32,664 nt of DNA, from the NCBI GenBank assembly GCA_003508565.1, contig DNUI01000085.1, positions 1 through 32,664 of the forward strand. The letters run 5' to 3'. Source of the stretch: Syntrophaceae bacterium. GTDB lineage: Bacteria; Desulfobacterota; Syntrophia; Syntrophales; UBA2185. Below, one piece after another: positions 6,001 to 21,782 of this stretch; position 1 is the first letter of the stretch, and each line of letters begins with the position of its first letter. The translations under genes were made by a program, and so were the position numbers. The notes beneath the pieces were generated by a model. It was not told the DNA's origin and did not search any database. It was given only the letters and a program-made list of their open reading frames with translations.

Positions 6001-6150
6001 CAAACTTCTCTCCCTACCTATCCGATCCCCACCGGCAGGTGATTTTGATGGACGGTTTTAACGTTCAATCAAAACAGTTTTTTCATAACCGGAACAAGGG
6101 ATGCATAACGGTTTGCCTTCTTTCATACGCACATGTCGTATAGCCTTCCC

Positions 6151-7080
6151 TCAATTGCAGTGTTTGCAGTGCTCCATTTCCCCGGCTGCTCCGGGCAGAA
6201 TCTGGAGGGTGGTGTGGTTTATCCCGTACTTGTGAATCAGCATTTCCTGGGCCGAACGGATGACCGCTTCGCTGTCGAAGGATTCCTCCACCATCCGAAG
6301 ATGGGCGGACAAAAGCTTCTGATCGGCGCCGGTCTGCCAGATGTGGAGATCGTTGACCTCCAGCACGTTATCAATTGCCAACAGGTCGTTTCTGACCTGG
6401 ATGAAATCAATGCCCGGTGGAACGGCGTCCAGCAGTGAATTGACGGTCTGCCGGACGATCTTGTAGATTTCCCGGGCGATGAACAGGCTGATGGCGATCG
6501 AAATGAGCGGATCGATGACGTGCCAGCCGAAAAACATGATCAAGAGGGCGCCAACGATGACCCCAAGGGAAAACAGGGCGTCCTGGAGCGAGTGAAGCCA
6601 GGCGCTTCTCATGTTGAAGTTCCGCGCCGAGATTTTCTGCAGCAAAAGGGTGGCGGCCCCGTTTCCAACGAAGGCGATCACGGCCACCCAGAGCATCTCA
6701 TTCCCGGGGATTGCCGGCGGCGCCGTCAGTCTGCCGACTGCCTCCCAGAGGATAAACGCGATCGCAACGGATAGGACGATGCTGTTGACAAAGGCGGCGA
6801 TAAACTCGATTTTGTGGTAACCGTATGTCTTGCTTGCATTGGCGGGCCGGTGGGACACCTTCTCCGCCCAATAGCTGAAGCCCATGGCGGCAATGTCGCT
6901 CAGATTGTGGACGGCGTCCGAGATCAACGCCATACTCTGAATGAGCAGTCCGAAAACCATCTCGAAGGCCACGATCCCGCCGTTGATGACCATGGCGAAA
7001 ACCAGGTTTTTCATCGATGCAGGCGATTTATGAGTATGATTGTGGTTGTGTCCCAAGGTTATGTACCTTTCTGTGCACAT
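6151..7080 (-). CDS. cation diffusion facilitator (CDF) transporter, Zn/Co/Cd type
   Basis: Six predicted TMs. HxxxD pairs sit in TM2 (AVHNLSD) and TM5 (LHSLQD). His-rich N-terminus HNHNHTH and C-terminal HCKHC. Confidence 0.9.
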   Translation of the reverse strand: MCTERYITLGHNHNHTHKSPASMKNLVFAMVINGGIVAFEMVFGLLIQSMALISDAVHNLSDIAAMGFSYWAEKVSHRPANASKTYGYHKIEFIAAFVNSIVLSVAIAFILWEAVGRLTAPPAIPGNEMLWVAVIAFVGNGAATLLLQKISARNFNMRSAWLHSLQDALFSLGVIVGALLIMFFGWHVIDPLISIAISLFIAREIYKIVRQTVNSLLDAVPPGIDFIQVRNDLLAIDNVLEVNDLHIWQTGADQKLLSAHLRMVEESFDSEAVIRSAQEMLIHKYGINHTTLQILPGAAGEMEHCKHCN

Positions 7081-7212
7081 TCTACCGCAAGCCCTTTTGC
7101 AAATTGATGCTTTTATCTATTGTTACTCCTCTGCACAGCAAATATCTCATATACTGACTCGAATCATGGGTTTATATTTCCTTTTATATGCACGCTTAAT
7201 GAGACCGGATCA

Positions 7213-7248
7213 GCGAAAGGGCGATGCCCGAAAGCAGAACCCTTTCGC
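7213..7248 (-). terminator. hairpin downstream of the OB-like gene (weak terminator or alternative-structure element)
   Basis: GCGAAAGGG (7213..7221) pairs with CCCTTTCGC (7240..7248) as a 9-bp stem. An internal CTTTCG can pair alternatively with CGAAAG. There is no clear U-tract, so confidence is low. Confidence 0.3.
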
Positions 7249-7258
7249 CGGAATACGA

Positions 7259-7723
7259 TTATCTTCTCCAGCCCCAGCCGGCCCAGACGGGAACGCCGGA
7301 GGCGTCTCTGAGGACAAGAACATTATCGCCCTTTTTCACCTCAGCAGCAAGCACGACTGGTTTGCCCGCAATGGTCGTGCGAGCTCCCTTGATTTCAACT
7401 TTGTCGCCCTTGCCAATTTTCGTATCGAGACGTTCCAGGTACCAGCTCGGTCCGAGGTGGACGGTGACCGTTTCCTTCTCCGTTTTGACCACGAGGGCAA
7501 TCCCCTGATTCATCCGCTTCATGGGAACGGTCTGTTCCAGTCCGATCACTTCACCTGAAAAAGTTTCGAGATTGGCAGGGTTATACATCCCCTGGTAAGG
7601 GGTACCCATGCCCCAGCCGCCGCTTCCTCGCCCTCCCCACTTTCCGGGCCCTGCAAGAGCCAAAGAAGCGGTTAAAAGAAACATCATAACGATCATTAAA
7701 CCAGCAATCCTTTTTGTTTTCAT
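7259..7723 (-). CDS. exported Gly/Trp/Met-rich OB-fold-like protein; paralogue of 2625..3149
   Basis: Signal peptide MKTKRIAGLMIVMMFLLTASLALA, followed by GGRGSGGWGMGTPYQGMY. The core is shared with 2625..3149. C-terminus is WAGWGWRR. Good RBS GAGGAAAGGA. Confidence 0.7.
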   Translation of the reverse strand: MKTKRIAGLMIVMMFLLTASLALAGPGKWGGRGSGGWGMGTPYQGMYNPANLETFSGEVIGLEQTVPMKRMNQGIALVVKTEKETVTVHLGPSWYLERLDTKIGKGDKVEIKGARTTIAGKPVVLAAEVKKGDNVLVLRDASGVPVWAGWGWRR

Positions 7724-7776
7724 AGATCTTTTCCTTTCCTCTTTTTGTTGAAGATTATGTTGTCCTTAATTGTTGA

Positions 7777-8259
7777 TTAATAACCTCTCATGCCCATGCC
7801 GCCATGGCCTCTCATCTCCTTGCCGTAACCATAGCTCCGGCCCGGTCTGTATGCATTTATTTGCGCCTGTGCCTGCTGCTCCGGGGTCAGAACCTTCGTG
7901 GATTCCAGACGAAAAGTCGTTCCCTTTTCATACAGTTTGTCCCTTAAGGTCTGCAGCTCCTTCTGCACCGCCAGGATCTTCTTTTGATCAGGTGTCCGCT
8001 CCAGCCACAGGAGCCTCATTTCGCCCCTCTTGCTGTACATCTGATCTTGGAGGGGTTTAATGTCGCGCAGATGAGCCTCCCGCAACGTGTTCAGTTTCGT
8101 GACCTGTTCCGCATTCAAATTCAAACCGGGTGCGGTTGTAAGGTCATAATACCCCCCACCGGAATGTCCGCCCCCCCAGCCTCTACGGGCTTCTGCGGGG
8201 GACATTGCCAAGCTTGCCGCCAGGGCAATCACCGCCATTACTGTAATCATTTTTTTCAT
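7777..8259 (-). CDS. CpxP/Spy/ZraP-family periplasmic chaperone / metal-stress protein
   Basis: Signal peptide present. Two LTxxQ-type motifs (LNAEQVTKL, LTPEQQAQAQ) lie in a helical core. Gly/His/Met-rich ends are GWGGGHSGGGYY and GHGGMGMRGY. Confidence 0.8.
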   Translation of the reverse strand: MKKMITVMAVIALAASLAMSPAEARRGWGGGHSGGGYYDLTTAPGLNLNAEQVTKLNTLREAHLRDIKPLQDQMYSKRGEMRLLWLERTPDQKKILAVQKELQTLRDKLYEKGTTFRLESTKVLTPEQQAQAQINAYRPGRSYGYGKEMRGHGGMGMRGY

Positions 8260-8747: not shown

Positions 8748-9131
8748 TCAATTCCGTCCAGCGGATTTATCCTCGATGCGCCGTTTGATGTCTTGTTTTA
8801 TCCTTACCTTCTCTGCTTCTTCGTAGGTCAGTTCGGAGGATTTCTTCACACCGTAATCCTCCGCCATTTCCACTCGGATATCAGGTTTCCGGCCCGTGTG
8901 CTCCTCCACGATCTTTGTGCAGCACATTACCGGGCAGCCCTCGATGATTACAAAGATCTCTGCATTTTTAACCTTGTTGATGCCGGTTTCCTTGTTGATG
9001 GCTACCGCAGGCAGGCAAAGCAGGTGAAAGTCTTCATTTTCCTTCACCAGTTCAGTGGTTATCGCTCCGGCCAGTTGTCCTGTGTTGGCTGCACCATAGC
9101 AGGTGGTCATCACAATTTTGAATTTTGACAT
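8748..9131 (-). CDS. DGC-domain (putative zinc-binding, Cys-rich) protein
   Basis: 127 aa with CYGAANTGQLAG near the N-terminus, LCLPAVA, and IIEGCPVMCC in place of the family DGC motif. RBS ACAGGAG. Confidence 0.7.
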   Translation of the reverse strand: MSKFKIVMTTCYGAANTGQLAGAITTELVKENEDFHLLCLPAVAINKETGINKVKNAEIFVIIEGCPVMCCTKIVEEHTGRKPDIRVEMAEDYGVKKSSELTYEEAEKVRIKQDIKRRIEDKSAGRN

Positions 9132-9311
9132 TATTTTGCTCCTGTCATGTCATGAAATTGATCTGATCGCTTCAAACAAATATTTTCTTTTATGTGCCGT
9201 CATTCATACTTTGGAAGTTCTACACAAACTGCACTGTACACATAGATAGGGAAAACAGCACCACCACAGAAGCCAAGATGCACCGATTTAAGTTTCATAT
9301 TCCTTCCATAT

Positions 9312-9917
9312 TTACTGCTGCTGCAGTTTCTGGAGGGCGTTGATAATGTCCTCACCCCCGACAAACATTTCCATATTGTCGCCCCTCACGATCACGCAGC
9401 TTGGCGTTGCATTGACTTTATCGTACTGGAGTAAGGAGTTGAACCATTCAAAGGTTGACTTAGGATCGAAGGCGGTAAAGGGTATTTTTTTGTTCCTGAA
9501 AAGATCCTCTATTCTCTCCGCCGTTGTGATATGCTTGTTATCGGTTGCCTCAAAAAGGGTGTTCCTTACCATCATGGCATGCTCGAAGTCATTTTTCGCT
9601 TGTATAGCATACAGAAAGTATCTAGCGTACAGGCCGCTATAGCGGTAGAAGGGGGTGTCCACCATGGTCAAGGTGATGATGTTTCTCTTGACTAGATCCT
9701 TCAACACCGGTTCAACGGCAGGTTTCATCCCCCTGCAGGGAGGGCAGAAAAAATCCGTATACATGCGCACTTGGACCGCTCCAGAACCATATGTAGGAAA
9801 TGAAACATTCTGAGCCTTTACGTCTCCATGGGATACAAAGAATAAAGCGATTGTTGTGAAGAACAATGTCAATAAGGGAACTAATGTACATTTCATGCTG
9901 TTTTTACCGATTTTCAT
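9312..9917 (-). CDS. exported DsbA-like thiol:disulfide oxidoreductase (CPPC), paralogue 1
   Basis: Signal/anchor present. Active site is DFFCPPC. It shares the signature D-x-P-F/I-x4-L-YA-R/K-Y-F/Y-LYA with 10134..10763 and with the C-terminal domain of 11333..12364. The track start is TTG 9923; ATG 9917 is preferred. Confidence 0.8.
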   Translation of the reverse strand: MKIGKNSMKCTLVPLLTLFFTTIALFFVSHGDVKAQNVSFPTYGSGAVQVRMYTDFFCPPCRGMKPAVEPVLKDLVKRNIITLTMVDTPFYRYSGLYARYFLYAIQAKNDFEHAMMVRNTLFEATDNKHITTAERIEDLFRNKKIPFTAFDPKSTFEWFNSLLQYDKVNATPSCVIVRGDNMEMFVGGEDIINALQKLQQQ

Positions 9918-9935
9918 TTTCAATCTATCCTTTCT

Positions 9936-10121
9936 TCATTTGTTACCTATGCAGTCCTTCTTCCATAGACAGTCGTCGTCATTACATGTATCTTTCGTGC
10001 GAAAACACGGCGAATATCCTTCAGCTCTCTGAATATCACGAATAATGTCCTGTTTGGTGCGACCTTTTCGGGCGTCAACACCCCATCCTTCGGCGATTTT
10101 CCGAATCTCTTCCAGTTTCAT
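9936..10121 (-). CDS. 61-aa Rho_N/SAP-like helical protein with C-terminal 4-Cys motif
   Basis: Strong RBS AAGGAGGA 7 nt upstream of the ATG. The N-terminus LEEIRKIAEGWGV..KQDIIRDIQ resembles the Rho_N/SAP fold. The C-terminus reads CFRTKDTCNDDDCLWKKDC (C-x7-C-x4-C-x6-C). Confidence 0.7.
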   Translation of the reverse strand: MKLEEIRKIAEGWGVDARKGRTKQDIIRDIQRAEGYSPCFRTKDTCNDDDCLWKKDCIGNK

Positions 10122-10133
10122 TGATCATCCTCC

Positions 10134-10763
10134 TTACTTTTTCGGGTGTCCAAGCGCGGTGCGCAGTTCGGACACCCCCTTCTTGATGTTCTTATCTCCC
10201 GAATATTTCCGGATATCCGTTGAAGAATAGACAAAGACAATGTTCGGCGTCCCTCGCACCTGGTACTTCCTCACGATGTCGTTGTATTGCTTGAAAACAG
10301 GCTTCACATCGTAGGGCTTCAGGGGAACGTTTCTGGCCTTCAAGGCGTTTTCCAATTGCGGCTCCGTGATGGCGCCGATGCGCGACGCCGTATCGAACAA
10401 CACTTTTCTCGCGAGGAGCACGTCTTTATATGATTGAGAAGCATTTGCCGCATACAAAAAGTACCTGGCGTAGAGAGGGGTCAATTTATAAATGGGGAAA
10501 TCCACAAAACTCACCGTGACGCCTCCATCGGCTAACAGTTCGTGGACCTCGTTGTCTAACCAATGTTCCAGTCTCTGGCAGGGCTGGCAGAAATAGTCTG
10601 AAAATATAAGCATCTGGTATGGGCCGGAACCATAGGATGGAACGAGTGCGTTTTCAGCGCTGTGCGCCGTCATCATCGATCCTGTGAATGTGAGCGTTAT
10701 GCAAAGGCACCCAAGAAACGCTACAACCGGTAGATACAACTTTTGCAACTTTAACATAGGCAA
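10134..10763 (-). CDS. exported DsbA-like thiol:disulfide oxidoreductase (CQPC), paralogue 2
   Basis: Signal anchor LKLQKLYLPVVAFLGCLCITLTF and active site DYFCQPC, with the same family signature as paralogues 1 and 3. TTG 10763 is 6 nt after GAGG; the alternative start is ATG 10757. Confidence 0.8.
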   Translation of the reverse strand: MPMLKLQKLYLPVVAFLGCLCITLTFTGSMMTAHSAENALVPSYGSGPYQMLIFSDYFCQPCQRLEHWLDNEVHELLADGGVTVSFVDFPIYKLTPLYARYFLYAANASQSYKDVLLARKVLFDTASRIGAITEPQLENALKARNVPLKPYDVKPVFKQYNDIVRKYQVRGTPNIVFVYSSTDIRKYSGDKNIKKGVSELRTALGHPKK

Positions 10764-10799
10764 TTTAAACCTCGATCGCTTGAGAACCTTCTTGTCATC

Positions 10800-11252
10800 T
10801 TATTGTGTCATTTCATGTATGAAGTCTTTAGCCCTGTCCCCTCTCAGATAGTCGGCCAGCCCAAGAAGACCCTCGACAAGGTATTTTGACTGGTAGCCCT
10901 TCAAGGTCAGAAATGTCCGGGCAATCTCGGCCCGGTCATAGTGAGGGCACACCGTGACGATAATCTTAGACCTGTCCAGTTCTTTCAGCCTGTCAGGAAG
11001 CTCATTGAGCGGGATGTGTTTTATAAATCCGAAACTATAGACCTGATGTTCTTCCCGGAAACGAATATCGATGATCTGAACGCTCCCTTGTTTGTAAAGG
11101 TGCAGCATTTCCTGAATGCCGATTTTCATGTTTCTGCGTTCCTGATAGTCAAAAGCTTTAAGATAGTTTTCAAACGAAACGCTTTCCCCTGCGTACACCT
11201 GTGTAGTCATCAACAACAGACACAACAATGCCAGAACTCCGTTTTTCACCAT
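10800..11252 (-). CDS. exported single-domain rhodanese (sulfurtransferase)
   Basis: Signal peptide MVKNGVLALLCLLLMTTQVYAGES and active-site loop VTVCPHYDRAEIA. The track start GTG 11273 reads through the RBS GAGGAGGAAGGA, so ATG 11252 is preferred. Confidence 0.85.
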   Translation of the reverse strand: MVKNGVLALLCLLLMTTQVYAGESVSFENYLKAFDYQERRNMKIGIQEMLHLYKQGSVQIIDIRFREEHQVYSFGFIKHIPLNELPDRLKELDRSKIIVTVCPHYDRAEIARTFLTLKGYQSKYLVEGLLGLADYLRGDRAKDFIHEMTQ

Positions 11253-11332
11253 TATTCCTTCCTCCTCGAACACTCAATGTCTTTCAACAGCGGCAACGCA
11301 CAATGGCGCCTTGGATGCCGCCACACTGGCAA

Positions 11333-12364
11333 TTACTTTTTCCCAGCACCTTTATACATTTTCAACGTTGCCAACCCGTCCAATATCTCGCCAGTTCCAA
11401 TGTATTTTCTTGAATAGGATGGAAAATACCGGATGATACATGTAGGAGTTGCGTCGATTCGATTTTGCTTGATACTATTGTTCAACGTCTGAAAGACCGG
11501 TTTCTCATCATATTCCGTCCAGGTGATCTTCTGTTCTTTCAGATACTTCACGAGAAGCTCTCTTGAGTGAATGTTTTGCTCCTGTGCCGCATGGAAGAGG
11601 TGGCTGCGAATCCGTAGAACCTCCCGTGCATCGGCACCGGCATGGACGGCATAGAGATAATACTTTGCATATAACGGGGTTGCTTTGGAAAAAGGAACAT
11701 CGATGAAGCTTATCTTTACATTGCCGTTGGCAAGCAACTCCTTGACCACTGGTTCAAGCGATGCATCAAGAATCCGGCAGGGTGGACAGAAATAGTCGGA
11801 AAAGAAAAACACCTCGTAAGAACCTTTGCCGAGAGAGGGGGTACGGGAGCCCTCTTGCCCGTACGCGGGTGTAACGGAACCGGAAAAGGTGAACAAAATA
11901 CCGAGATATCCCAGAAGGGCGATAATCAGTAGCGGAACCTTTTGTAATTTTAACATAGGCAAATCAACCTCCCCAAGAAAATAGAGCCACATCTTCCGCC
12001 TGTTTTCGCGCCAGGCGGCAGGGGCTTCATAGTTTATGATAAACGCCGCGAGGACCGTGACGGCAAAGGCGAGACAAAACGGACAATATATGTCGTTCTG
12101 CAATTGGAATGTAAATAAATGAATCTCGACGCCGATACCTGCCGCGAGAAGAATGAGGACAAATGGAATTTGCCGGAAGGCGGCAAATGCGATGACCACA
12201 AGCATATATGCAATGCCAACCCATTTCAGATCAATCCCCAAGATATCCCCCTGCAAATAACTGCACGACGTATCGCAGACCTCGTAAAATATCATGAGGG
12301 CGATGCCGGTGACAGCAAGAATAATCGTGATTATGTGTTTGTACTTTTTAACATGATTCATCAT
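11333..12364 (-). CDS. fusion protein: 4-TM VKOR/DsbB-like quinone-linked thiol oxidase domain + TM5 + DsbA-like CPPC domain (paralogue 3)
   Basis: Loop Cys pair C-DTS-C-S after TM1, CPFC at the start of TM4, a basic cytoplasmic linker, then TM5 and a DsbA-like domain with DYFCPPC. This is the topology known for bacterial VKOR-thioredoxin fusions. The VKOR assignment is tentative because loop 1 is short. Confidence 0.7.
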   Translation of the reverse strand: MMNHVKKYKHIITIILAVTGIALMIFYEVCDTSCSYLQGDILGIDLKWVGIAYMLVVIAFAAFRQIPFVLILLAAGIGVEIHLFTFQLQNDIYCPFCLAFAVTVLAAFIINYEAPAAWRENRRKMWLYFLGEVDLPMLKLQKVPLLIIALLGYLGILFTFSGSVTPAYGQEGSRTPSLGKGSYEVFFFSDYFCPPCRILDASLEPVVKELLANGNVKISFIDVPFSKATPLYAKYYLYAVHAGADAREVLRIRSHLFHAAQEQNIHSRELLVKYLKEQKITWTEYDEKPVFQTLNNSIKQNRIDATPTCIIRYFPSYSRKYIGTGEILDGLATLKMYKGAGKK

Positions 12365-12428
12365 TTCACACATATGCCTCCTGTTTCGTTGAGCTCCTTT
12401 TACCCTCTAAACTTTATTGATCCAAATG

Positions 12429-13220
12429 TTAAATGGCAACGCCGAAATAAATAAGAATATATTTCAGGGACACATAAAGAAAGAGCAATCCGAAAAGGAA
12501 CTTCAGTGCGGCGGGTTTGAACTTCGCCACAAGCTTGGCCCCATAGATGGCGCCGATCAGGGCGCCGACGCCAAGGGTTATTGCCACAGGAATGTTCACC
12601 ACGTTCTGATAGAATTTGAAAATAGCGCCGACCAGAGCCATCCAGACGAAAGAGGCCATGGACGTGCCGATGGCGAGCTTCATCGGCGCTTTGAACAGAT
12701 AGATGAACGAGGGCACCAGGGCATACCCGCCGCCGAGGCCCACGATACCAGTGAGAAAACCGATGGCCGATCCCAGGACACCTTTCTGGAAAGACGAACC
12801 CGGCATTCCTCCCCCGGCCGCCGGCTGCGGCAGGGGGTTCTTTCCTAACAGGCCCTTGCCGCCCTCGTAGAGCATCCGCAGGGTGACCAGCAGGAAGGCG
12901 ATGCCGATGATCAGATCGATCAGATCCCCGTAAGGCATGACGTAGGCGAAAACGACTGAGCCGATGATCACTCCCAAAACACCGCTCGCCCCCGTGACAT
13001 AGGCGGTCTGTTTGTCCACGTTGCCCATCCGGATGTGCTGAACAGCTCCGGATCCCGCCGTGAACACGACGGCCGTTAGTGTCGTTCCCACTGCAAAGGC
13101 TGGGTCGAAATCAAAACCGAAACGGATGACCGGCATCATCAGAGCACAGCCGCCCGTTCCTAAAAGTCCACCGACTACTCCGGCAGCAATACCAACCACA
13201 AAATAAATGAGAAAACTCAA
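12429..13220 (-). CDS. TauE/SafE (TSUP) family anion transporter
   Basis: 263 aa and about 8 TMs, with an internal repeat carrying GLLGTGGCALMMP and GIVGLGGGYALVP. TTG start 5 nt after AAGGAGGTG. TTGA overlap with the upstream gene. Confidence 0.9.
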   Translation of the reverse strand: MSFLIYFVVGIAAGVVGGLLGTGGCALMMPVIRFGFDFDPAFAVGTTLTAVVFTAGSGAVQHIRMGNVDKQTAYVTGASGVLGVIIGSVVFAYVMPYGDLIDLIIGIAFLLVTLRMLYEGGKGLLGKNPLPQPAAGGGMPGSSFQKGVLGSAIGFLTGIVGLGGGYALVPSFIYLFKAPMKLAIGTSMASFVWMALVGAIFKFYQNVVNIPVAITLGVGALIGAIYGAKLVAKFKPAALKFLFGLLFLYVSLKYILIYFGVAI

Positions 13221-13540
13221 TGTTCCACCTCCTTCAGGATAATTGATGTATTCAAATGTCTTCCAAGAATCTCCATGGCGTCTCCCATTTGATTATCTGT
13301 AACCCGGACACCCTTTCTTTCAAACCATCGCCTCGTCTCTCCGTCAATGCCGCCGCAAAGGAGAACGTCCGGAGCAAGAGCAAGAAGCTTGGCCTTTCTT
13401 AGGGATGGCGAACGGTCCTCCAAGGGGATCTTCAAAATAGAACATACAGTTCCGCCATCGACCTGGACCAGGAGAAGCTCCGGGGCGGTAAAAAAGTGAG
13501 GGGATACCCGGTTCTCAAAAAGAGGTATGGCCACCTTCAT
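13217..13540 (-). CDS. NifX/NifB-like (dinitrogenase FeMo-cofactor-binding fold) small protein
   Basis: MKVAIPLFENRVSPHF...LLCGGIDGETRRWFERKGVRV matches the Nitro_FeMo-Co domain pattern. ATG 13540 is preceded by AGGAG; the track start 13558 is TTG. Confidence 0.7.
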   Translation of the reverse strand: MKVAIPLFENRVSPHFFTAPELLLVQVDGGTVCSILKIPLEDRSPSLRKAKLLALAPDVLLCGGIDGETRRWFERKGVRVTDNQMGDAMEILGRHLNTSIILKEVEH

Positions 13541-13590
13541 GACATGGTGCTCCTGCAAAGTTTCGGTATAGAATTATTTGAGTATGACAT

Positions 13591-13606
13591 CGCAAGGTGC
13601 GTGCCA
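13591..13606 (-). promoter_or_regulatory. sigma-54 (-24/-12) promoter of the NifX-like/TauE/VKOR-DsbA/rhodanese operon
   Basis: The minus strand reads GTGGCACGCACCTTGCGAT, a near-perfect TGGCACG-N4-TTGC. It lies about 50 nt upstream of ATG 13540. Confidence 0.8.
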
Positions 13607-13689
13607 CGGACACACAAATCTCAGTAAATGTGTTTCCCCTTAAAATCCAGTATCTTATTGTTTGCATCGCATGGCATTTTCTGTTTGTA

Positions 13690-13707
13690 TGTTTCATTTA
13701 TGAAACA
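13690..13707. promoter_or_regulatory. enhancer-binding-protein site 1, perfect palindrome TGTTTCA-N4-TGAAACA
   Basis: TGTTTCATTTATGAAACA, about 90 bp upstream of the -24 element. Confidence 0.6.
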
Positions 13708-13720
13708 GTCCCGGAACTGG

Positions 13721-13738
13721 TGTTTCAGATGTGAAACA
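13721..13738. promoter_or_regulatory. enhancer-binding-protein site 2, perfect palindrome TGTTTCA-N4-TGAAACA
   Basis: TGTTTCAGATGTGAAACA. Its centre is 31 bp (about 3 helical turns) from site 1, the classic tandem bEBP UAS layout. Confidence 0.6.
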
Positions 13739-13830
13739 TGAAGGATAGTCAGGTGTGTCCGATCCATAGGAACCTGAATGACCCCTCTTATTTCTCTTCA
13801 ATCGTGTAAAAGTGGTACTGTCTTTAAATA

Positions 13831-13851
13831 ATAGTTGACATATACAACTAT
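13831..13851. promoter_or_regulatory. inverted repeat ATAGTTG-N7-CAACTAT, candidate MarR operator overlapping a TTGACA -35 box
   Basis: ATAGTTGACATATACAACTAT lies 44 nt upstream of the marR-type ATG. It contains the GTTGAC half-site that recurs at 14381..14408. Confidence 0.45.
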
Positions 13852-13894
13852 ATATGAAAGAAAGGCGTCACCAATTTCCAAGGAGGATGGATTA

Positions 13895-14347
13895 ATGGAC
13901 GAACAGGCCAGGCAGCTTGCCGGGAGCATTGAAAAAATTATGTATTATTTTGGTACGCAAAGCATGGAGGGAGAGTGTTGTGAAAATATTTCTCTCGGCG
14001 AATTTTTTGCCCTTCGCGCCGTATTGCATCGGAATATCTGTACCATGCAGGATATTGCAAAAAGCGCCGTGGTCACTAAAAGCGGTGCGACCCGCATTGT
14101 CAGTCGTCTGGAGGATAAGGGTCTCGCGCATCGCGAACAGGACCAGAAAGATGGGAGGATCTGTTGTGTGACGTTGACGGATGACGGCAAATCGCTCCTG
14201 AATCGTATCGAGGATCAACTCATGAATAAGATACAGACGATGCTGGTGGCGATGGACCCGGACATGCGCGAAATTCTGATGATTACCCTTCATGCATTTT
14301 GTCAGTCCGCAGACCGACAAATGACAAAATGGGAGAAACTGTCCTAA
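13895..14347 (+). CDS. MarR family transcriptional regulator
   Basis: Winged-helix core ICTMQDIAKSAVVTKSGATRIVSRLEDKGLAHREQDQKDGR. ATG 13895 is 7 nt after AAGGAGGA; the track start TTG 13835 lies in the promoter region. Confidence 0.9.
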   Translation: MDEQARQLAGSIEKIMYYFGTQSMEGECCENISLGEFFALRAVLHRNICTMQDIAKSAVVTKSGATRIVSRLEDKGLAHREQDQKDGRICCVTLTDDGKSLLNRIEDQLMNKIQTMLVAMDPDMREILMITLHAFCQSADRQMTKWEKLS

Positions 14348-14505: not shown

Positions 14506-15618
14506 GTGTTTCAAATGAATAATTTTGTCACTGCCGGTCAATTTTTTATAGTGATTGCCGGGGAACTGATTCTGATTTTTGTGGCCGTTTCCTTTCTCAT
14601 CGGGGTCCTGACGGAATATCTCCCTCCATCCCGCATCAGGGATTTTCTTTCCAACAAGATTACGTCGGTACAATACCTGTTGGGTGCTGGCTTGGGCGCC
14701 CTCACGCCTTTCTGCTCTTGTTCAACCGTTCCTATCACGGCAGGGTTGCTAAAGGGCGGCGTACCATTTGGCCCGATTATGGCGTTCCTTTTTTCTTCAC
14801 CAGTTCTCAATCCTGTAATTATTGCTCTTTTGCTCTCGCTCCTGGGTCTTAAAGTGACGATGGCTTATGTCGTCATTACCTTTTTTGGTTCCATGGTAAC
14901 GGCGGCTCTCCTGTCGAAACTCGGAATGGAAGGACAGGTCAAGCCCTTGATGAATTTTCAGGCAGCCTGTTGCGCGGAAGAGAAAACAAAGCCTGATGTC
15001 GGCCTCGTGATGATCCAGCCGGCTGCCACCGGCTGTTGTTCTAATGAAAGTGCTCAACCTCAGAAGTTGTCTACCTTGCCCACCTATCAAGCTCCGAGCG
15101 CCTGCGGCGCGGGGGGAGCAGAGATGATGCTTGCAAAGCTACCGGCTGAAGCGTCATGCTGCACTGTCAATTTTGATGCGAAAGACTCGGCATATGTACC
15201 TTTTAAAGAAAAGATGAAAAACGCAGCGTCGTCAGCACTTGACACGTTCAAGGGGGTGTTCTGGTATCTGCTTTTGGGAGCAGGGATCGGCGCTTTCATC
15301 TACGGATTTTTCCCGCAGGATCTGTTTGTTAGATTGGCAGGACCGGGCAATTCATGGTCTATTCCTATTGCGGCGGCCATCGGCGTACCAATGTATATCA
15401 GGGCGGAAACGGTGATTCCCATCAGTGCCGCCCTTGTGGGAAAGGGTATGGGGGTGGGAACGGTGCTCGCCCTCATCATCGGCGGTGCCGGGGCAAGTAT
15501 TCCAGAGATGATCATTCTTGGTTCCATGTTCAGGAAGAAACTGATCGCCGCTTTTATACTGAACGTTTTTCTGGTCGCAATTGCGGCAGGGTATATTGTG
15601 GATAAACTGATATATTAA
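14506..15618 (+). CDS. ArsP-family (PF03773-like, 'predicted permease') transporter with Cys-rich central loop
   Basis: Family motif LTPFCSCSTVPITAGLLKGG. The central loop carries three vicinal Cys pairs (ACCAEE, TGCCSNE, ASCCTV) plus ACGAGG. GTG start 7 nt after TAGGAGGA. Confidence 0.85.
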   Translation: MFQMNNFVTAGQFFIVIAGELILIFVAVSFLIGVLTEYLPPSRIRDFLSNKITSVQYLLGAGLGALTPFCSCSTVPITAGLLKGGVPFGPIMAFLFSSPVLNPVIIALLLSLLGLKVTMAYVVITFFGSMVTAALLSKLGMEGQVKPLMNFQAACCAEEKTKPDVGLVMIQPAATGCCSNESAQPQKLSTLPTYQAPSACGAGGAEMMLAKLPAEASCCTVNFDAKDSAYVPFKEKMKNAASSALDTFKGVFWYLLLGAGIGAFIYGFFPQDLFVRLAGPGNSWSIPIAAAIGVPMYIRAETVIPISAALVGKGMGVGTVLALIIGGAGASIPEMIILGSMFRKKLIAAFILNVFLVAIAAGYIVDKLIY

Positions 15619-15650
15619 AAGAGAGCAGACACCAAGAACCTGGGAGCGGG

Positions 15651-15668
15651 TGTTTCAGATGCGAAAGG
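15651..15668. promoter_or_regulatory. degenerate third copy of the TGTTTCA-N4-TGAAACA element
   Basis: GGTGTTTCAGATGCGAAAGG has its first 13 nt identical to site 2 (13719..13731), but the second half-site is decayed. It lies between the convergent 3' ends of the permease and bEBP genes. Confidence 0.3.
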
Positions 15669-15684
15669 GCAGTGTCGATACGGT

Positions 15685-17070
15685 CTATTGCTTAAGGAGT
15701 TTCCTGCTTTTCCTCCATAGTGTCGTGCGGCTGATGCCGAGCTGACGGGCCGTTTTCATGCGGTGGCCGCCTTGCTCTCTAAGCGCCTCCTGGATAAGCT
15801 TCAGTTCCGAAGACACCAAGGGTGTAGGTGTTGAAGAATTCGTGAAATCATGGTTCGTCTTTTCGAGAAAATCGTAGGGTAGGTGCTTTTCTTCAATCAG
15901 CACCCCCCTGCACAGGACACAGGCATGTTCCAGGATATTTTCCAGTTCCCGGATGTTGCCGGGAAACGAATAATTCATGAGGCGGGCCATTACTTCTGTG
16001 GAAACCCCCGCAATATGTTTGCCTTTGAGCGCTTTCAGGCGAGCGATAAAGTTTTCCGTCAGAAGGGGAATGTCTTCTTTCCGTTCGCAGAGTGGCGGAA
16101 TCTCGATCTTAATAATGTTGAGGCGGTAGTAAAGATCCTCACGGAAAAGGCCGTCCCGGACCATTGCGGTTATATCTCTATGGGTGGCCGCCATGATACG
16201 TACGTCGACCTTTACGGGCTCAACTCCGCCTAATGGAATGAATATTTTCTCCTCCAGAACCCGCAAAAACTTGACCTGGAGAGAGGGAGAGGTATCACCG
16301 ATTTCGTCGAGAAAAAGAGTTCCACCATCAGCCAGAGAGAATCGACCAGGCTTGTTCTTCTTCGCATCCGTAAAGGCCCCCTGGACGTAACCGAACAGTT
16401 CCGATTCCAGAAGGGTGTCAGGAATGGAACCGCAATTGACCTTGATGAAGGGTCTTTCTTTCCGCGGGCTCAGATCATGGACCGCCCGGGCCAAGAGACC
16501 CTTTCCCGAACCGCTGGGCCCCTGGATCAGGAGGGTGCTGTCGCTTTCAGCCACGTCTGGCAGGATGTCAAAAATCTCTTGCATTCGTGGATTTTTGCTG
16601 ATCATGTCCCCCATACTGTAACGGCCCGCGACAGCCTTCCGGAGTGTCTCAATCATCGACAAATCGCGGAAGATCTCGACAGCGCCGACAACATCGCCCC
16701 GATGGTTGCGGATAAGAGCTGTGGTGACATTGACGGCAATCTCCTTTCCCGACTGGTTGATAATAACCGCGGGGTGATTGAACACCGGCTCGCCTGTCCT
16801 CAGAGTTCGCTCGAGGGGACAGTTGCTCTGGCAGGTATTGGAACGGAGAATGTCGAAGCAAAATTGGTTCACTGCTTCTTGAAAAGTGAATCCCGTGATC
16901 TCTTCAGCGGCCCGGTTAAAATATGTGTTGATCCGACGTTGAAGATCCACTGTAAAGACGCCGTCCGTCATGCTCTCCAAAATGGCGCAGCAAGGCAAGC
17001 TATCATCACTGCTTCGGCATGATGAGGTGTTTACAGAACCGGCATCATTTTTACTGCTTTTCCTTTTCAT
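15685..17070 (-). CDS. sigma-54-dependent transcriptional activator (bEBP) with N-terminal PAS sensor and C-terminal Fis-type HTH
   Basis: AAA+ core with Walker A GPSGSGKG, the sigma-54 contact loop GAFTDA and ESELFGY. C-terminal HTH TARQLGISRTTLWRK. There is no receiver domain; the PAS region carries Cys residues. Confidence 0.95.
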   Translation of the reverse strand: MKRKSSKNDAGSVNTSSCRSSDDSLPCCAILESMTDGVFTVDLQRRINTYFNRAAEEITGFTFQEAVNQFCFDILRSNTCQSNCPLERTLRTGEPVFNHPAVIINQSGKEIAVNVTTALIRNHRGDVVGAVEIFRDLSMIETLRKAVAGRYSMGDMISKNPRMQEIFDILPDVAESDSTLLIQGPSGSGKGLLARAVHDLSPRKERPFIKVNCGSIPDTLLESELFGYVQGAFTDAKKNKPGRFSLADGGTLFLDEIGDTSPSLQVKFLRVLEEKIFIPLGGVEPVKVDVRIMAATHRDITAMVRDGLFREDLYYRLNIIKIEIPPLCERKEDIPLLTENFIARLKALKGKHIAGVSTEVMARLMNYSFPGNIRELENILEHACVLCRGVLIEEKHLPYDFLEKTNHDFTNSSTPTPLVSSELKLIQEALREQGGHRMKTARQLGISRTTLWRKSRKLLKQ

Positions 17071-17108
17071 AATGATCCTGTATCTTTTCCCCGCTGAACC
17101 TTTATGAT

Positions 17109-17885
17109 CTATCCTTTCAACTTACTATACAGCCCCTGAAGTTTTGTTTGATACATGTTTCGGATGTTTTCCTCTTCCTCGCCAAGGGGTTTCACGGGGA
17201 TGAGATCCATGACATCGCTGGGGGACATGTTGGAATCGGTCATGGTTTTGAGCGTACCCTTCATCATTTTTAACAGGCTTTCTTTCACTTCATCCGGTGA
17301 CATCCCGAAGGTCTTTCCCAGTTCCTGCAACTCATAGAGCTGGAACCAGAAGTAGGTAGGCCCCATGGCGGTCAAGATAGCATACGCTTCAAGTTTTTCT
17401 TCCGCCACTTCGGGGCAGTCTCCCAGAATCTTGAACCATGACAGCATTTGTTTCTTTTCTTCCTTTGCAAATATGGCGGAGAATACGAGAGGATTGTACC
17501 CTTTATTCACCATTGATGGTGCGTTGGGAATCATCCGGACTATTCGTGAAAATCCGTCGAGGGCATTGGAAATCTTGGAGATGGAAACTTTCGGGGCCAG
17601 GGAAACGACAACCGCATCCCGGCGGAGCGTTGATTTTATTTCTCCCAGAATTCCCATGATCACCGGTGGATGGAGGGCAATAAAAACCACGTCGGCAGCA
17701 GCTGGTTTTTTAAGATCGCCTCCTGCCGCTTCAATTTTTGGGAATCGCTTTTGCAGATCTTTCAGAACATCGGCATTGGCGTCGCTGACAAACACCTTGC
17801 CGGGCCATTTCTTTTTTCGTTCCAACCCACTCAGAATGATCCTGGAGATCCTTCCGCCACCGATAAAACCGATGGATTTAAACAT
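17109..17885 (-). CDS. pyrroline-5-carboxylate reductase family NAD(P)H oxidoreductase
   Basis: Rossmann motif IGFIGGGRISR, MIPNAPSMVNKG (compare ProC MPNTP) and LTAMGPTYFW (compare GSGPAY). It diverges from housekeeping ProC at the C-terminus. Confidence 0.65.
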   Translation of the reverse strand: MFKSIGFIGGGRISRIILSGLERKKKWPGKVFVSDANADVLKDLQKRFPKIEAAGGDLKKPAAADVVFIALHPPVIMGILGEIKSTLRRDAVVVSLAPKVSISKISNALDGFSRIVRMIPNAPSMVNKGYNPLVFSAIFAKEEKKQMLSWFKILGDCPEVAEEKLEAYAILTAMGPTYFWFQLYELQELGKTFGMSPDEVKESLLKMMKGTLKTMTDSNMSPSDVMDLIPVKPLGEEEENIRNMYQTKLQGLYSKLKG

Positions 17886-17951
17886 GCGAACAAGCCTCCT
17901 TCCTTAATGTATTATGTTTTTTTACTTATCACCGAGGGGTCGTTACACTCA

Positions 17952-18659
17952 TTAGTTACCCCAAAAAGGATTCCCGATGAAGTAGATACCTAAAACAGCG
18001 ATGAGCGCCCCGGCGCCCTTGCGGAACCACAAACCCGCGCCCTGCCATGTCCGGTTTTCGATCAGTTTTCTCACCATGGCCGTTGAACTGCCCGCAATCA
18101 CGATAGGAAGGCAGTGCCCGAAGGCAAACAGCGTAATGAAAAGGATGCCCAGCCCTACCTTCTCCTGAATTGTAATAATGGCCAGAATGGGCGCGATGAA
18201 ACCGAACGTGCAGGAGCCGGACAGCACACCGTACGACAGGCCCAGTCCAAAGGCGCCCCAGAGCCCCCGCAGGTTAAGACGGTAGAGAAGGCTGCCGGAA
18301 GCGGAACATGCTTCGACCCCCATCATGCCTAATGCGACCCAGAGAAGGATCAGCCCTACCAGTATCTGCCAGTAATTCCCCACGTCGCCCAGCATCCGTC
18401 CCAGAATGACACACACGATGCCGACCAGCGCAATGGTAATAAAAAGTCCAAAGGTAAACGCAACGGAGTAGGCGCTGGCCTGCCGGGGTTCCAGTATCTG
18501 TTCCTGTCCACCCACATAGGCGACTATGAGGGGGATGGATGCAAGATGACAGGGACTGAACAGGACGCTGACCACGCCCCACAGAAAACACCCGAGGGCG
18601 GCCAGGATTGCTGCACCCATCATCCATTCGTTGATTGTCAAAAAGAAAGAATCGAACAT
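17952..18659 (-). CDS. ccdA: CcdA/DsbD-type transmembrane thiol:disulfide electron transporter
   Basis: Six TMs with the two conserved Cys contexts FSPCHLASIPL and SGSCTFGFIAPIL. ATG 18659 is preceded by GAGGGTGG; the track start is GTG 18668. Confidence 0.85.
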   Translation of the reverse strand: MFDSFFLTINEWMMGAAILAALGCFLWGVVSVLFSPCHLASIPLIVAYVGGQEQILEPRQASAYSVAFTFGLFITIALVGIVCVILGRMLGDVGNYWQILVGLILLWVALGMMGVEACSASGSLLYRLNLRGLWGAFGLGLSYGVLSGSCTFGFIAPILAIITIQEKVGLGILFITLFAFGHCLPIVIAGSSTAMVRKLIENRTWQGAGLWFRKGAGALIAVLGIYFIGNPFWGN

Positions 18660-18671
18660 TATATCCACCCT

Positions 18672-19058
18672 CTACTGTACGCCCATCGTCTTGAGCTGGG
18701 CCACAATAGCCTCCTCGCTCATATACCCGATGTGGCGGCTGATTTCCCTGCCTTTTTTGTCGAAAAAGATCTGCGTAGGAATAGCCCTGACTTGGAATTG
18801 CTGTATGGCTTCCCGGTTATATCGGAGGTCGATAAAAACAATAGCGGCCTTTCCCTGGTAGCGCTTCTCTAATCTGTCCAGGATCGGCGCCATCATCTTG
18901 CAGGGAATGCAGGAGGCGGCGCCCAGGTCGACCATGGTCACCATGCCCTTGACGGGGACCTTTTTATACTCTGTGGAAGACGACGTACAAGCCGCATTGA
19001 CGAAAAAAAAGATTGTAAAGATCAATGTACCGATTAGTGTAATACGCTTTATGCTCAT
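18672..19058 (-). CDS. exported/lipid-anchored thioredoxin-family protein (CIPC)
   Basis: Signal peptide ends FVNAAC. Thioredoxin active site GAASCIPCKMMAP and cis-Pro region RAIPTQIFF. It sits immediately upstream of ccdA. Confidence 0.85.
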   Translation of the reverse strand: MSIKRITLIGTLIFTIFFFVNAACTSSSTEYKKVPVKGMVTMVDLGAASCIPCKMMAPILDRLEKRYQGKAAIVFIDLRYNREAIQQFQVRAIPTQIFFDKKGREISRHIGYMSEEAIVAQLKTMGVQ

Positions 19059-19065
19059 AAATACC

Positions 19066-19377
19066 TCAACAATCGCAAGAACCTTCGCAGCCCGCGCTCG
19101 CCTTAAGGCTCGAGGTGAGTTTAAATCCAGATCCTCCGACAGACTCGATGAAATCGACGCGTATCGGCTTTACTTCATCGAACAAAGACTTGTCAATAAG
19201 ATAATGGATGTCTCTATCCGTGAATACCAGATCTTTTTCCTGTGGCTCGTCCAGAGCCATGCCCAGAGTGGGCCCGCCTCAACCAGCCTGCAAGAGTATC
19301 CTGATTGAAAGTGGTTCTTTCTGTTTTTCCAAAAAGTTCTTGATCATGCTGCTTGCATTTTCTGTAACTTCAAACAT
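19066..19377 (-). CDS. HesB/IscA-like selenoprotein (in-frame UGA = Sec at codon 33, 19279..19281)
   Basis: The ORF track shows only the 3' 64 codons. Extending upstream gives MFEVTENASSMIKNFLEKQKEPLSIRILLQAG-U-GGPTLGMALDEPQEKD... with RBS AGGAG 7 nt before ATG 19377. The U occupies the position of the first conserved Cys of IscA (R-x-x-x-x-GC-S/G-G). The C-terminal C-x3-C-x-C stands in for the IscA CGC. Confidence 0.8.
19240..19266 (-). promoter_or_regulatory. candidate bacterial SECIS hairpin
   Basis: On the RNA, 12 nt after the UGA: CUG-GGCA-U-GGCUC-UGGAC-GAGCC-A-CAG. This gives a 6-bp upper stem, a GG-containing 5-nt apical loop about 28 nt from the UGA, and a 3-bp lower stem. Folded by eye only. 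Confidence 0.5.
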
Positions 19378-19391
19378 AAATTCTCCTGTCT

Positions 19392-20672: not shown

Positions 20673-20711
20673 ATCACTCCTCACCGAGGGGCTGTTTCAC
20701 CGCGTTACAAC

Positions 20712-21767
20712 TCACGTTTCCGCCGGGAATAATTTCCTTTTAAAAAGAAGGGCCACGTTGACCAGGATGATCAGGACCGGGACTTCAATCAGCGGCCCAA
20801 TGACCGTCGCGAAAGCCTGGCCAGAGTCTATGCCATAGATAGCAATGGCCACGGCAATGGCCAGCTCAAAATCGTTGCTCCCGGCAGTGAATGATACTGC
20901 AGTAGTCTGCGCGTAATTTGCACCCATCTTCCTCACAAAAAAGAATGTCATGAACCACATCACCGCAAAATACAGAGTAAGGGGTATGCCCACGATCAGG
21001 ACATCAAGAGGCGATTCAATGATCTTGTTTCCCTGGCTTGAGAACATCACGACAATTGTAAACAGAAGCGCGATCAGCGTAATGGGACTTATCTTCGGCA
21101 TGAATACTGTATCGAACCATTCTTCGCCTTTGGCATAGATGAGGGTATAGCGGGTGATGAGGCCCGCAAGGAAGGGAATTCCGAGATAGATAAAAACGGT
21201 TTTGGCCGATTCCGCCATAGAGACATTGATGTTGAGGTCTTTCGCAAGTCCAAGCCAGTTCAGGGCAAGGGTGATGAACACATAGATATAGACGGCGTAA
21301 AAAAGAACCTGGGCGATGGCGTTGAGGGCTACAAGGCCTACGGCGAATTCCCTGTCCCCACCGGCAAGTTCATTCCAGACGATAACCATGGCAATGCACC
21401 GGGCGAGCCCCACAAGAATGACGCCGATCATATATTCCGGGTAGTTCTGCAAAAAGATGACGGCCAGAACAAACATGACCACCGGGCCGATCACCCAGTT
21501 CTGCACAAGGGATACGGTCAGCAATGGTTTGTTGTTGAAAACTTTCCCTATTTTCTCATACTTCACCCGTGCAAGGGGAGGGTACATCATCAAAATCAGC
21601 CCGATAGCTATGGGAATGGATGTAGTACCGACCTGCAAGCCTATGATGAAATCTGATATTCCGGGAAGAAAATAACCGATAGCGATTCCCGCGCCGATGG
21701 CCAGGAATATCCACAACGTTAAGAAGCGATCCAGAAACGACAACTGTTTTATAATGCCATCCGACAT
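20712..21767 (-). CDS. acr3: ACR3-family arsenite efflux transporter
   Basis: 351 aa and about 10 TMs. Hallmark [19 protein letters not shown] contains the conserved essential Cys. N-terminus is [13 protein letters not shown]. Confidence 0.95.
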
Positions 21768-21782
21768 ATAGATTCTCCCCTC

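Follow-up and report, generated by a model that had tools for sequence, protein, structure and literature searches.

A candidate internal translation start, conserved within a fused VKOR-like/DsbA-like gene of Syntrophales, and its likely relation to free-standing DsbA-like genes

The gene considered here encodes a predicted disulfide-oxidation protein and lies on the minus strand, at 11333..12373, of a stretch of 32,664 nucleotides (nt) from a Syntrophaceae bacterium (GenBank assembly GCA_003508565.1, contig DNUI01000085.1, positions 1 to 32,664 of the forward strand), which is termed the window in the following. Its open reading frame (ORF) of 346 amino acids unites a membrane domain of five transmembrane (TM) helices and a DsbA-like domain in a single frame; the gene caller places the start at ATG 12364, which yields 343 amino acids (P0001). 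Inside the linker between TM4 and TM5, the codons of Gly134, Glu135 and Val136 form a Shine-Dalgarno (SD)-like motif, GGGGAGGT, at a workable distance upstream of an in-frame ATG, the codon of Met140. Codon usage among homologues indicates that this internal SD and ATG are conserved beyond the needs of the protein and are maintained by selection. The architecture as such, namely a divergent VKOR core, a linker, TM5 and a DsbA-like domain, is proposed with high confidence. That the gene specifies an oxidation module and, in addition, uses its internal start to deliver a separate pre-DsbA with TM5 as predicted signal peptide is moderately probable, and a lineage of free-standing DsbA-like genes probably descends from a fused gene by loss of its VKOR part.

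The internal start came to attention by its resemblance to the 5' end of par1, a free-standing paralogue encoded downstream of the fusion. Residues 138-346 of the fusion align end to end with residues 1-209 of par1 (41% amino acid and 51% nucleotide identity), the first eight aligned residues, LPMLKLQK, being identical. At the DNA level, TTGCCTATGTTAAAATTACAAAAG (11939..11962) agrees with 10740..10763 in 22 of 24 bases, both mismatches are synonymous third positions, and none of 100 shuffles of the window contained two matches. The homology of the linker to the N-terminus of the paralogue at 10134..10763, as claimed in the initial annotation, thus stands. The joint sequence GGGGAGGTTGATTTGCCTATG at 11954..11974 corresponds to the 5' end of par1, and upstream of the match the fusion reads GGGGAGGTTGAT and the untranslated leader of par1 CGAGGTTTAAA, with GAGGTT common to both and an indel of 1 nt. 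Since GAGGTT belongs to the untranslated leader of par1, the similarity extends past the par1 coding sequence. Moreover, it is located in the charged stretch preceding the TM helix and is hence not a hydrophobic-codon effect, an artefact that the same annotation had considered. The window additionally features a TTG (11960..11962), 5 nt past GGAGG.

For the analysis of selection, the codons of the joint were extracted from 70 fused genes, and the statistics on SD, ATG and synonymous sites were computed without phylogeny correction. Glu135 is encoded by GAG in 66 of the 70 genes, as compared to 26% of the Glu codons elsewhere in the same genes, and Gly134 by GGG in 56 of 71 genes against a background of 17%. 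The Asp, Asn or Ser codon after the motif nearly always ends in T, giving GGGGAGGT(N)(G/A)AT, and more than half of the GGAGG pentamers in the 70 genes (53 of 97) fall at this joint position while occurring sporadically elsewhere. The in-frame ATG is found in 64 of 70 fused genes, and its presence tracks that of the SD (table 62/2/2/4, Fisher p = 2e-4, about five independent lineages). Six Syntrophales genes are devoid of Met140 (L012, L036, L052, L069, L079 and L039); four of these carry GAA, one GGC-GAG and one the full motif. Likewise, the distant fused genes without this Met, L083, L084, L085, L086 and L076, read GGA-GAA, GGA-GAA, GGC-GAA, GGG-GAC and GGG-GAA, respectively, so that none possesses the SD; GAA occurs in all four Met-less out-group genes with Glu at this position, and also in L079. 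A first per-column codon test (plain binomial or G-test) overstated the signal, because six-fold codon families inflated it; these families were therefore split and the analysis was redone. In the resulting profile, the excess of pairwise synonymous identity is highest in the gene at residues 118-137 (z up to 4.2). Codon choice, this peak of constraint and the joint loss of SD and ATG favour a possibility already raised in the initial annotation, namely that the internal SD and start may still work.

A second stretch of elevated synonymous conservation is present at TFSGSV (window about 11870..11908, minus strand), where Ser164 is TCC in 89% and Gly165 GGT in 81% of genes. Pairing between the two synonymous peaks was addressed by duplex folding in comparison with synonymous recodings, which gave a z of about 0, so that such pairing was discarded. 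An SD-driven programmed frameshift like that of dnaX or prfB was rejected by inspection, since the codons past the motif (ATG TTA/TTT AAA) form no in-frame slippery heptamer.

The mRNA just after the ATG belongs to the weakest-structured parts of the gene, with a mean minimum free energy of 40-nt windows between -2.1 and -3.8 kcal/mol at +6..+24, the gene mean being -5.85. A GC-rich hairpin is located upstream of the SD (Table 1), the 40-nt context of which folds with -17 kcal/mol. Its position, about 48 nt before the ATG, constitutes the most stable 40-nt window of the gene when averaged over 70 homologues; relative to synonymous recodings its stability is modest (mean z -1.13), yet this is the most negative value of the gene. 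The hairpin coincides with the synonymous-constraint peak, is followed by a U-rich tract (11975..11986), and is held by different clades with different Arg codons. RNAalifold detected no consensus structure in 60 joint regions (-1.46 kcal/mol), a search of 9000..14000 against Rfam at E <= 1 gave no match, neither a sigma-70-type promoter nor an intrinsic terminator was called at the joint, and no promoter-like site was called within the fused ORF.

The fused form is widespread. A protein search retrieved more than 120 clusters (identity 58-81%), the length of which, with few exceptions, is 340-350 amino acids at 97-100% query coverage. In a genome scan restricted to one genome per species, 79 fused loci were found, almost all in Syntrophales, Smithella or Syntrophaceae metagenome-assembled genomes, and in 79 of 79 loci the match of the N-terminal domain (N-domain) runs on into that of the C-terminal domain (C-domain); in a few loci the match is broken or truncated, to all appearances at frameshifts or contig ends. 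Among the best-conserved parts of the protein is the linker, MWLYFLGEVxxPMFK. TM5 occurs in every fused family member inspected, with a short linker as well as with a long one. Since all 79 loci and more than 120 clusters are fused with the same linker, a recent fusion is refuted. These data thereby contradict the earlier notion of a fossil ribosome-binding site at a fresh joint, answer the question whether the genes are split or fused in relatives in favour of fusion, and remove the basis for regarding TM5 as the donated signal anchor of a carrier protein. The fusion either predates the internal start site or matches it in age, and this site does not represent a relic of recent fusion.

Several Smithella genomes harbour two or more copies of the fused gene (L027/L071, L033/L069 and L066/L072); in L033, copies at 6001..7041 and 9391..10422 are oriented on the same strand, 2.3 kb apart. 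In addition, many N-domain homologues of 145-200 amino acids (P0135-P0218) stop just after TM5 (...GSVxPxY), which may be genuine split forms, consisting of the 5-TM protein alone, or fragments.

The direction of descent is indicated by the relatives of par1. The par1 family comprises more than 20 clusters at 58-94% identity, with proteins of about 205-220 amino acids starting at M-L-K-L-Q-K, and several of its called ORFs still read ...ITEVELPMLKLQK upstream of M-L-K-L-Q-K. The leaders of par1 in the window and in L082 share the form GAGGTT-N3/4-TTGCCTATG; L082, where rhodanese is followed by par1 as in the window, has the leader GAGGTTGAATTGCCTATG. Most informative is P0267 (L080, 5001..5843), which is 85% identical to par1 and gives an ungapped alignment with residues 101-342 of the window fusion. 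P0267 retains TM4, the linker, the SD, the ATG with an identical GGGGAGGTTGATTTGCCTATG, and a par1-type DsbA domain, while the part from mid-TM1 to TM3 and all four VKOR cysteines are gone by an in-frame internal deletion. In its contig, P0267 is situated upstream of a rhodanese gene, i.e., at the place of the intact fusion in the window. Distant par1 orthologues adjoining fusions (L034, L035, L055 and L057; 46-52% identity) bear unrelated signal peptides. The starts and leaders of the par1 family, together with P0267, imply that the free par1 lineage derives from a fused gene. By this comparison, fission from fusion to free gene, with deletion of the VKOR part, is the probable course of events, which reverses the order initially assumed (a free gene joining a partner), since P0267 keeps TM4 and the linker and has lost the core. 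The internal SD and ATG would accordingly suffice for expressing and exporting a DsbA-like protein.

In a midpoint-rooted neighbour-joining (NJ) tree, par1 and a second free paralogue, par2, fall among the DsbA domains of fused genes, and par2 groups with those of short-linker fused genes; this tree carries little weight, owing to the midpoint rooting and a sampling biased toward fused forms. The mature domain of par1 is nearer to L076/P0314-type fusions than to the fused domain of the window itself, and it may share the origin from a fused gene or may have been joined by recombination. In the free par1-type protein P0279, the signal anchor, LPLLVVVLLGYLVILFTFSASV, nearly equals TM5 of the L001 fusion (LPLLVVALLGYLVILFTFSGSV); such an anchor on a par1-type mature domain suggests that fused and free copies may have exchanged sequence by recombination or gene conversion.

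Assignment of the membrane domain relies on several weak but concordant similarities. The Pfam VKOR profile (PF07884) matches residues 33-114 of the window protein with 18.5 bits (E 0.0024), thus missing the cut-off of 27.5. Of 20 family members scanned singly, 19 gave a VKOR match below threshold (best E 3.9e-5), and the matches always map residues ~33-114 onto profile positions ~42-133. A profile search with the N-domain retrieved 142 representatives only among 1.84 billion proteins, the most distant of which exceed the VKOR cut-off (P0253, 30.2 bits; P0262, 33.8 bits). The corresponding PDB sequence search yielded zero matches up to E = 10. A fold search with the full-length model listed, among its matches, DsbA-type and related thioredoxin-fold proteins (DsbG, Scs), so that a separate model of the N-domain was needed. 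This AlphaFold2 model (predicted local distance difference test, pLDDT, 73.6; TM helices 81-86) had only VKOR structures as its five top PDB matches in Foldseek, namely Synechococcus 4nv2 and 4nv6, Takifugu 6wvi and 6wv8, and human 6wv6, with TM-scores of 0.51-0.66 normalised to the query and weak E-values of 0.02-0.34.

The cysteines of this domain are strongly conserved: among 71 sequences, C33 and C37 show next to no variation, and among 20 N-domain sequences none at all; Y96-C97-P98-F99-C100, which aligns to the end of the VKOR profile, is invariant in 71. In characterised VKORs, the Cys pair of the extracytoplasmic TM1-TM2 loop is spaced by about 5-7 residues. The CX3C spacing found in the whole family, with its short loop, departs from this. 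DsbB has the reverse of the VKOR-type order, in which the loop pair comes first and the CXXC at TM4 follows. DsbB was rejected as a candidate, its order of Cys pairs being reversed relative to that seen here and the protein being absent from the fold and Pfam matches. MauE, recently described in Thermodesulfobacteriota, has a CXC motif between TM3 and TM4 as active site (bioRxiv 10.64898/2026.03.05.709764); a MauE-type oxidase was likewise discarded, because the Cys pattern here is not CXC and Pfam returns VKOR rather than MauE. On sequence and model evidence, the N-domain is filed as a divergent member of the VKOR family, presumably coupled to quinone.

The exported domain is more readily classified. 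It matches Pfam Thioredoxin_4 (PF13462) with 38.6 bits against a threshold of 23.2, and DSBA (PF01323) just under threshold (23.2 versus 25.6 bits). PDB sequence matches of the full-length profile are restricted to DsbA-type chains, including S. aureus DsbA (3bci) and B. subtilis BdbD (3eu3), and the top fold matches of the full-length AlphaFold model (mean pLDDT 79) are DsbA proteins. The model places strands at residues 186-192 and 219-225, helices at 232-303 and strands at 311-325; the C-domain thus displays a thioredoxin fold with an inserted helical domain, a CXXC with which helix 1 begins, and a cis-Pro loop. In C196-P-P-C199 and T309-P310, the residues C196, C199, T309 and P310 are invariant in 71 homologues. 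A third, nearly invariant cysteine, Cys312 (11438..11440, minus strand), follows the cis-Pro loop as T309-P310-T311-C312 and would adjoin the CPPC active site in the DsbA fold; an equivalent is found in par2 (ATPSC) and not in par1 (GTPNI).

Hydropathy delimits five TM segments at residues 14-31, 51-66, 69-89, 100-115 and 146-163. Lysine plus arginine (K+R) counts amount to 3 at the N-terminus, 1, 1 and 0 in the loops, and 6 in the linker 116-145; the TM1-TM2 loop with Cys33 and Cys37 contains one K+R and three D+E, and the loop preceding TM4 contains zero K or R. According to the positive-inside rule, these counts predict that C33/C37, C97/C100 and residues 164-346 are located outside the membrane. 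The segment TFSGSVTPAYGQ is strongly conserved, and its distance to the mature domain equals that of the AxA-type signal-peptide ends in free homologues (N-termini compared by eye). Since TFSGSVTPAYG/Q occupies the position of these ends, cleavage of the polypeptide at this site is plausible. Altogether, the initial annotation was right as to a VKOR-like N-domain (sub-threshold Pfam matches, distant members above the cut-off, top folds exclusively VKOR), a DsbA-like C-domain (Thioredoxin_4 match, DsbA/BdbD sequence and fold matches) and a predicted periplasmic position of both Cys pairs and the CPPC domain, which agrees with hydropathy and charge counts.

Table 1. Coordinates of the fused gene, its internal elements and the adjoining genes in the window
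Feature	Position	Strand	Remarks
Fused gene	11333..12373	-	likely start ATG 12364 or 12361; own SD AGGAGG at 12377..12382
Divergent VKOR-family membrane domain, residues 1-135, TM1-TM4	11969..12373	-	Pfam VKOR sub-threshold; fold matches
Loop Cys pair C33-x3-C37, after TM1	12263..12277	-	predicted periplasmic; conservation and charge counts
CPFC, residues 97-100, periplasmic start of TM4	12074..12085	-	putative quinone-coupled redox centre
Cytoplasmic TM4-TM5 linker, residues 116-145	11939..12028	-	conserved MWLYFLGEVxxPM
GC-rich hairpin CCGCCUG / CAGGCGG	11996..12018	-	22 nt upstream of the internal SD
Internal SD-like motif GGGGAGGT, codons of Gly134-Glu135-Val136	11967..11974	-	
In-frame ATG, Met140	11954..11956	-	11 nt after GGAGG
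TM5, residues 146-163	11885..11938	-	predicted signal-peptide core of the internal product; homologous to the signal anchor found in the free paralogues
A170-Y-G-Q173, after TM5	11855..11866	-	possible signal-peptidase I site, A-x-G/Q
DsbA-like periplasmic domain, residues 174-346	11336..11854	-	CPPC at 11777..11788; cis-Pro loop T309-P310 at 11444..11449
par1, free-standing paralogue, 209 amino acids	10134..10773	-	leader GAGGTTTAAA-TTG-CCT-ATG at 10755..10773, probably copied from a fusion-type joint
par2, second free DsbA-like paralogue, 203 amino acids	9312..9923	-	Pfam Thioredoxin_4; 30% identical to the fused domain
Exported rhodanese	10800..11273	-	Pfam Rhodanese; likely start ATG 11252
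Small Rho_N-like ORF	9936..10121	-	
DGC-domain protein	8748..9131	-	
TauE	12429..13220	-	
NifX-like	13217..13558	-	
MarR	13835..14347		divergent

From these features, the following mode of action can be proposed. The full-length protein would constitute a self-contained disulfide-oxidation module encoded in one frame, in which electrons, by analogy with VKOR-thioredoxin fusions, would pass from substrate thiols to CPPC, on to C33/C37 and C97/C100, and finally to quinone. The linker codons for Gly-Glu-Val, held as GGG-GAG-GTN, would serve as an SD 11 nt before Met140, at which ribosomes may also initiate to produce a pre-DsbA of 207 amino acids from the same mRNA. Its N-terminus, composed of MLKLQK, TM5 and AYG/Q, would act as a Sec signal peptide or anchor. 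In E. coli, DsbA is present in great excess over DsbB. An internal start could uncouple the amount of DsbA from that of VKOR and raise the ratio of partner to oxidase. par1 would have arisen by deletion of the VKOR part of a fused gene, the internal SD and ATG being left as the only start. That the start arose and was kept inside an already fused gene, which would provide a tethered fusion next to a free DsbA, assign a dual role to TM5 and render the gene pre-adapted for fission, is a proposition with even odds. As part of it, the relatives are arranged into a series leading from the intact fusion via the core-deleted fusion (P0267) to the free gene with a GAGGTT-TTGCCTATG leader, as in window par1 and L082.

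Several observations weigh against this interpretation. With 11 nt between them, GGAGG and ATG are rather far apart, and the better-spaced TTG is confined to the subclade of the window. L039 carries the SD without the ATG, while L003 and L051 possess the ATG with a weakened SD, and the association of both elements amounts to about five independent losses plus out-groups placed at NJ level only. Synonymous constraint has its second peak at residues 156-168, including the GGT codon of Gly165, and some phylogenetic inertia is left (mean excess 0.10). Moreover, part of the constraint may stem from an RNA-level function, as the conserved hairpin upstream suggests. Finally, the window protein stays under the Pfam VKOR threshold and the Foldseek E-values are weak.

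The same observations have been weighed under other explanations of the joint. The motif might pair with the anti-SD of elongating ribosomes and thereby cause a programmed pause after TM4 has emerged, granting time for insertion or targeting, in which case only the full-length protein would be made and Met140 would be kept for protein reasons. The location of GGGGAGGT in a cytoplasmic linker between two TM helices, its synonymous-site conservation, a GGAGG-ATG gap above the initiation optimum and a stable hairpin just upstream that could add to stalling would all suit a pause. However, SD-induced pausing in vivo is disputed, and a pause predicts neither the decay of the SD to GAA in just the ATG-less lineages and out-groups nor the use of the same SD and ATG as sole start in more than 20 free paralogue clusters, so this explanation is regarded as unlikely. 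Alternatively, the conservation of codons 118-137 might reflect an mRNA structure or processing signal made up of the GC hairpin and the U-rich tract, i.e., an RNase site, a stabiliser or an attenuator, of which the SD is a part or to which it is incidental. In support of such an element, the local fold is the most stable of the gene in 70 homologues, with the most negative mean z, and the hairpin is kept with different Arg codons across clades; on the contrary, the mean z of only -1.13, the RNAalifold energy of -1.46 kcal/mol, the lack of an Rfam match and of a terminator-like call at the hairpin, and the unexplained link between SD and ATG render it distinctly improbable. It would, moreover, be compatible with internal initiation, for instance on a processed transcript translated from Met140. 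Pure protein constraint combined with codon inertia, G-E-V-x-x-P-M being a structural linker motif with inherited codons, could account for the conservation of LGE(V/A) in more distant fused relatives and for the strong codon retention seen also in other columns such as those of Gly165 and Ser164. Yet GAG (26%) and GGG (17%) are minority codons that are near-fixed at the joint, in more distant relatives the same amino acids are encoded with GAA, and the joint remains the top synonymous peak of the gene even after the six-fold split, which makes this reading very improbable.

Least credible, with a negligible share of probability, is the fossil of a recent fusion, according to which adjacent VKOR-like and DsbA-like genes, the latter with its own ribosome-binding site and signal anchor, were joined and the site has not yet decayed. 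The joint does resemble the start of the neighbouring free gene, SD included, but in 79 loci and in more than 120 clusters, with identities as low as 47-58%, the genes are fused with the same linker, the synonymous sites of the SD are under selection and do not drift, Met and SD are missing from more distant fused relatives, distant orthologues of the free gene have unrelated N-termini, and the deletion intermediate points from fusion to free gene. A reading that concerns function only would regard the membrane domain as a non-VKOR thiol-redox protein, e.g., a reductant-transferring or metal(loid) module acting with rhodanese, TauE and the CcdA-like protein, and the DsbA-like domains as reductases or isomerases. 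It draws on the sub-threshold Pfam score of the window protein and the missing PDB sequence match of the N-domain profile, on a CX3C loop pair instead of the usual longer spacing, and on surroundings that encode transporters of metal or arsenic type next to a reductive pathway of CcdA-like protein and thioredoxin. Nevertheless, the order of the cysteines, with the loop pair first and the CXXC at TM4, is that of VKOR and unlike DsbB or the CXC of MauE, the top folds are exclusively VKOR, family members reach the VKOR threshold, and a Clostridium VKOR-DsbA fusion complements E. coli dsbA dsbB (PMC12453122); a non-VKOR function is hence considered quite improbable.

VKOR-thioredoxin and VKOR-DsbA fusions are already known as an architecture, and so are in-frame internal starts. 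The VKOR-thioredoxin-like fusion of Synechococcus sp. (PDB 4NV2/4NV6; also 3KP9), the best structural match of the N-domain model, shares a four-helix VKOR core with a loop Cys pair and a CXXC at TM4, as well as a fifth TM helix that bears a periplasmic thioredoxin-fold domain with its own CXXC in the same topology. By contrast, the Syntrophales protein features a full DsbA/BdbD-type domain with helical insert, a CX3C loop pair, a long conserved cytoplasmic TM4-TM5 linker and a VKOR similarity under the Pfam threshold. To our knowledge, no internal start has been reported for the cyanobacterial fusion. In functional terms, the closest precedent for an anaerobe with its oxidation module in one gene is the CsVKOR-DsbA fusion of Clostridium sp., which replaces both DsbA and DsbB in E. 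coli and whose CsVKOR part was recognised as a VKOR homologue, with CXnC and CXXC aligned to the VKORs of M. tuberculosis and Synechococcus (PMC12453122). It originates from a different phylum, the window protein differs from it in being sub-threshold for Pfam VKOR, and internal initiation is not described in that paper (0 occurrences of 'internal' in a text search). In general, about 9% of the InterPro VKOR entries are fused to a domain of the thioredoxin superfamily (bioRxiv 10.64898/2026.03.05.709764).

As in the DsbB-DsbA pair of E. coli, the VKOR-DsbA pair of M. tuberculosis and the BdbC-BdbD pair of B. subtilis, a quinone-coupled oxidase in the membrane would re-oxidise a periplasmic DsbA-like protein; these pairs, however, consist of two independently expressed genes, whereas here a single frame may supply both a tethered and a free partner. 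par1 and par2 may also use the VKOR domain of the fusion in trans. Production of two polypeptides from one gene is familiar from ClpB, IF2 and CheA. In-frame internal starts have further been described for phage endolysins (PMC9430671), and internal translation initiation sites of E. coli were mapped with retapamulin (bioRxiv 10.1101/520783). In these cases, as at the joint, an SD and an in-frame start at a domain boundary yield the C-terminal domain separately beside the full-length protein; the predicted internal product discussed here differs in that its N-terminal signal peptide serves as a TM helix in the full-length protein, so that both products would differ in tethering and compartment. 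In the literature, no report was found of an internal start in a disulfide-oxidation module, nor of such a natural series from fusion to fission.

How disulfide bonds form in Syntrophales and other strict anaerobes is poorly charted, and recognition of the fused family fills part of this gap. Because the VKOR half lies under the Pfam threshold, the family is annotated merely as 'thioredoxin domain protein' or 'DsbA'. If the proposal holds, the internal start would represent a simple genetic means by which a single transcript fixes how much partner is made per oxidase, and likewise a natural example of an internal ribosome-binding site that lets a fused gene split while expression and export of the downstream domain are retained. 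Furthermore, synonymous-site analysis across metagenome-assembled genomes can flag hidden starts in unculturable organisms.

In the window, the fusion is part of a minus-strand run in the order NifX-like, TauE, fusion, rhodanese, par1, Rho_N-like, par2 and DGC. Rhodanese adjoins the fusion downstream in about 15 related loci, and the same neighbours recur in L001 and L080. Judging from the domain names, the locus looks like an envelope thiol/metal(loid) stress island with oxidative and reductive branches rather than a housekeeping locus. Rhodanese and par1 are in the same frame, separated by one TAA and 36 nt without a further in-frame stop (10764..10802, minus strand), which may be a 1-in-3 coincidence or something more. 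Farther out (6151..8259 and 14506..23242), where functions of the metal or metalloid type abound, a CDF efflux protein, Metal_resist/LTXXQ, two ArsP_1 permeases, an SBF transporter and a sigma-54 PAS activator are encoded. About 6 kb from the fusion, a thioredoxin (18672..19058) and a DsbD_TM/CcdA-like protein (17952..18668, minus strand) make up a reductive envelope thiol pathway, and a thioredoxin and DsbD_TM pair is also found near the par1-type gene in L080.

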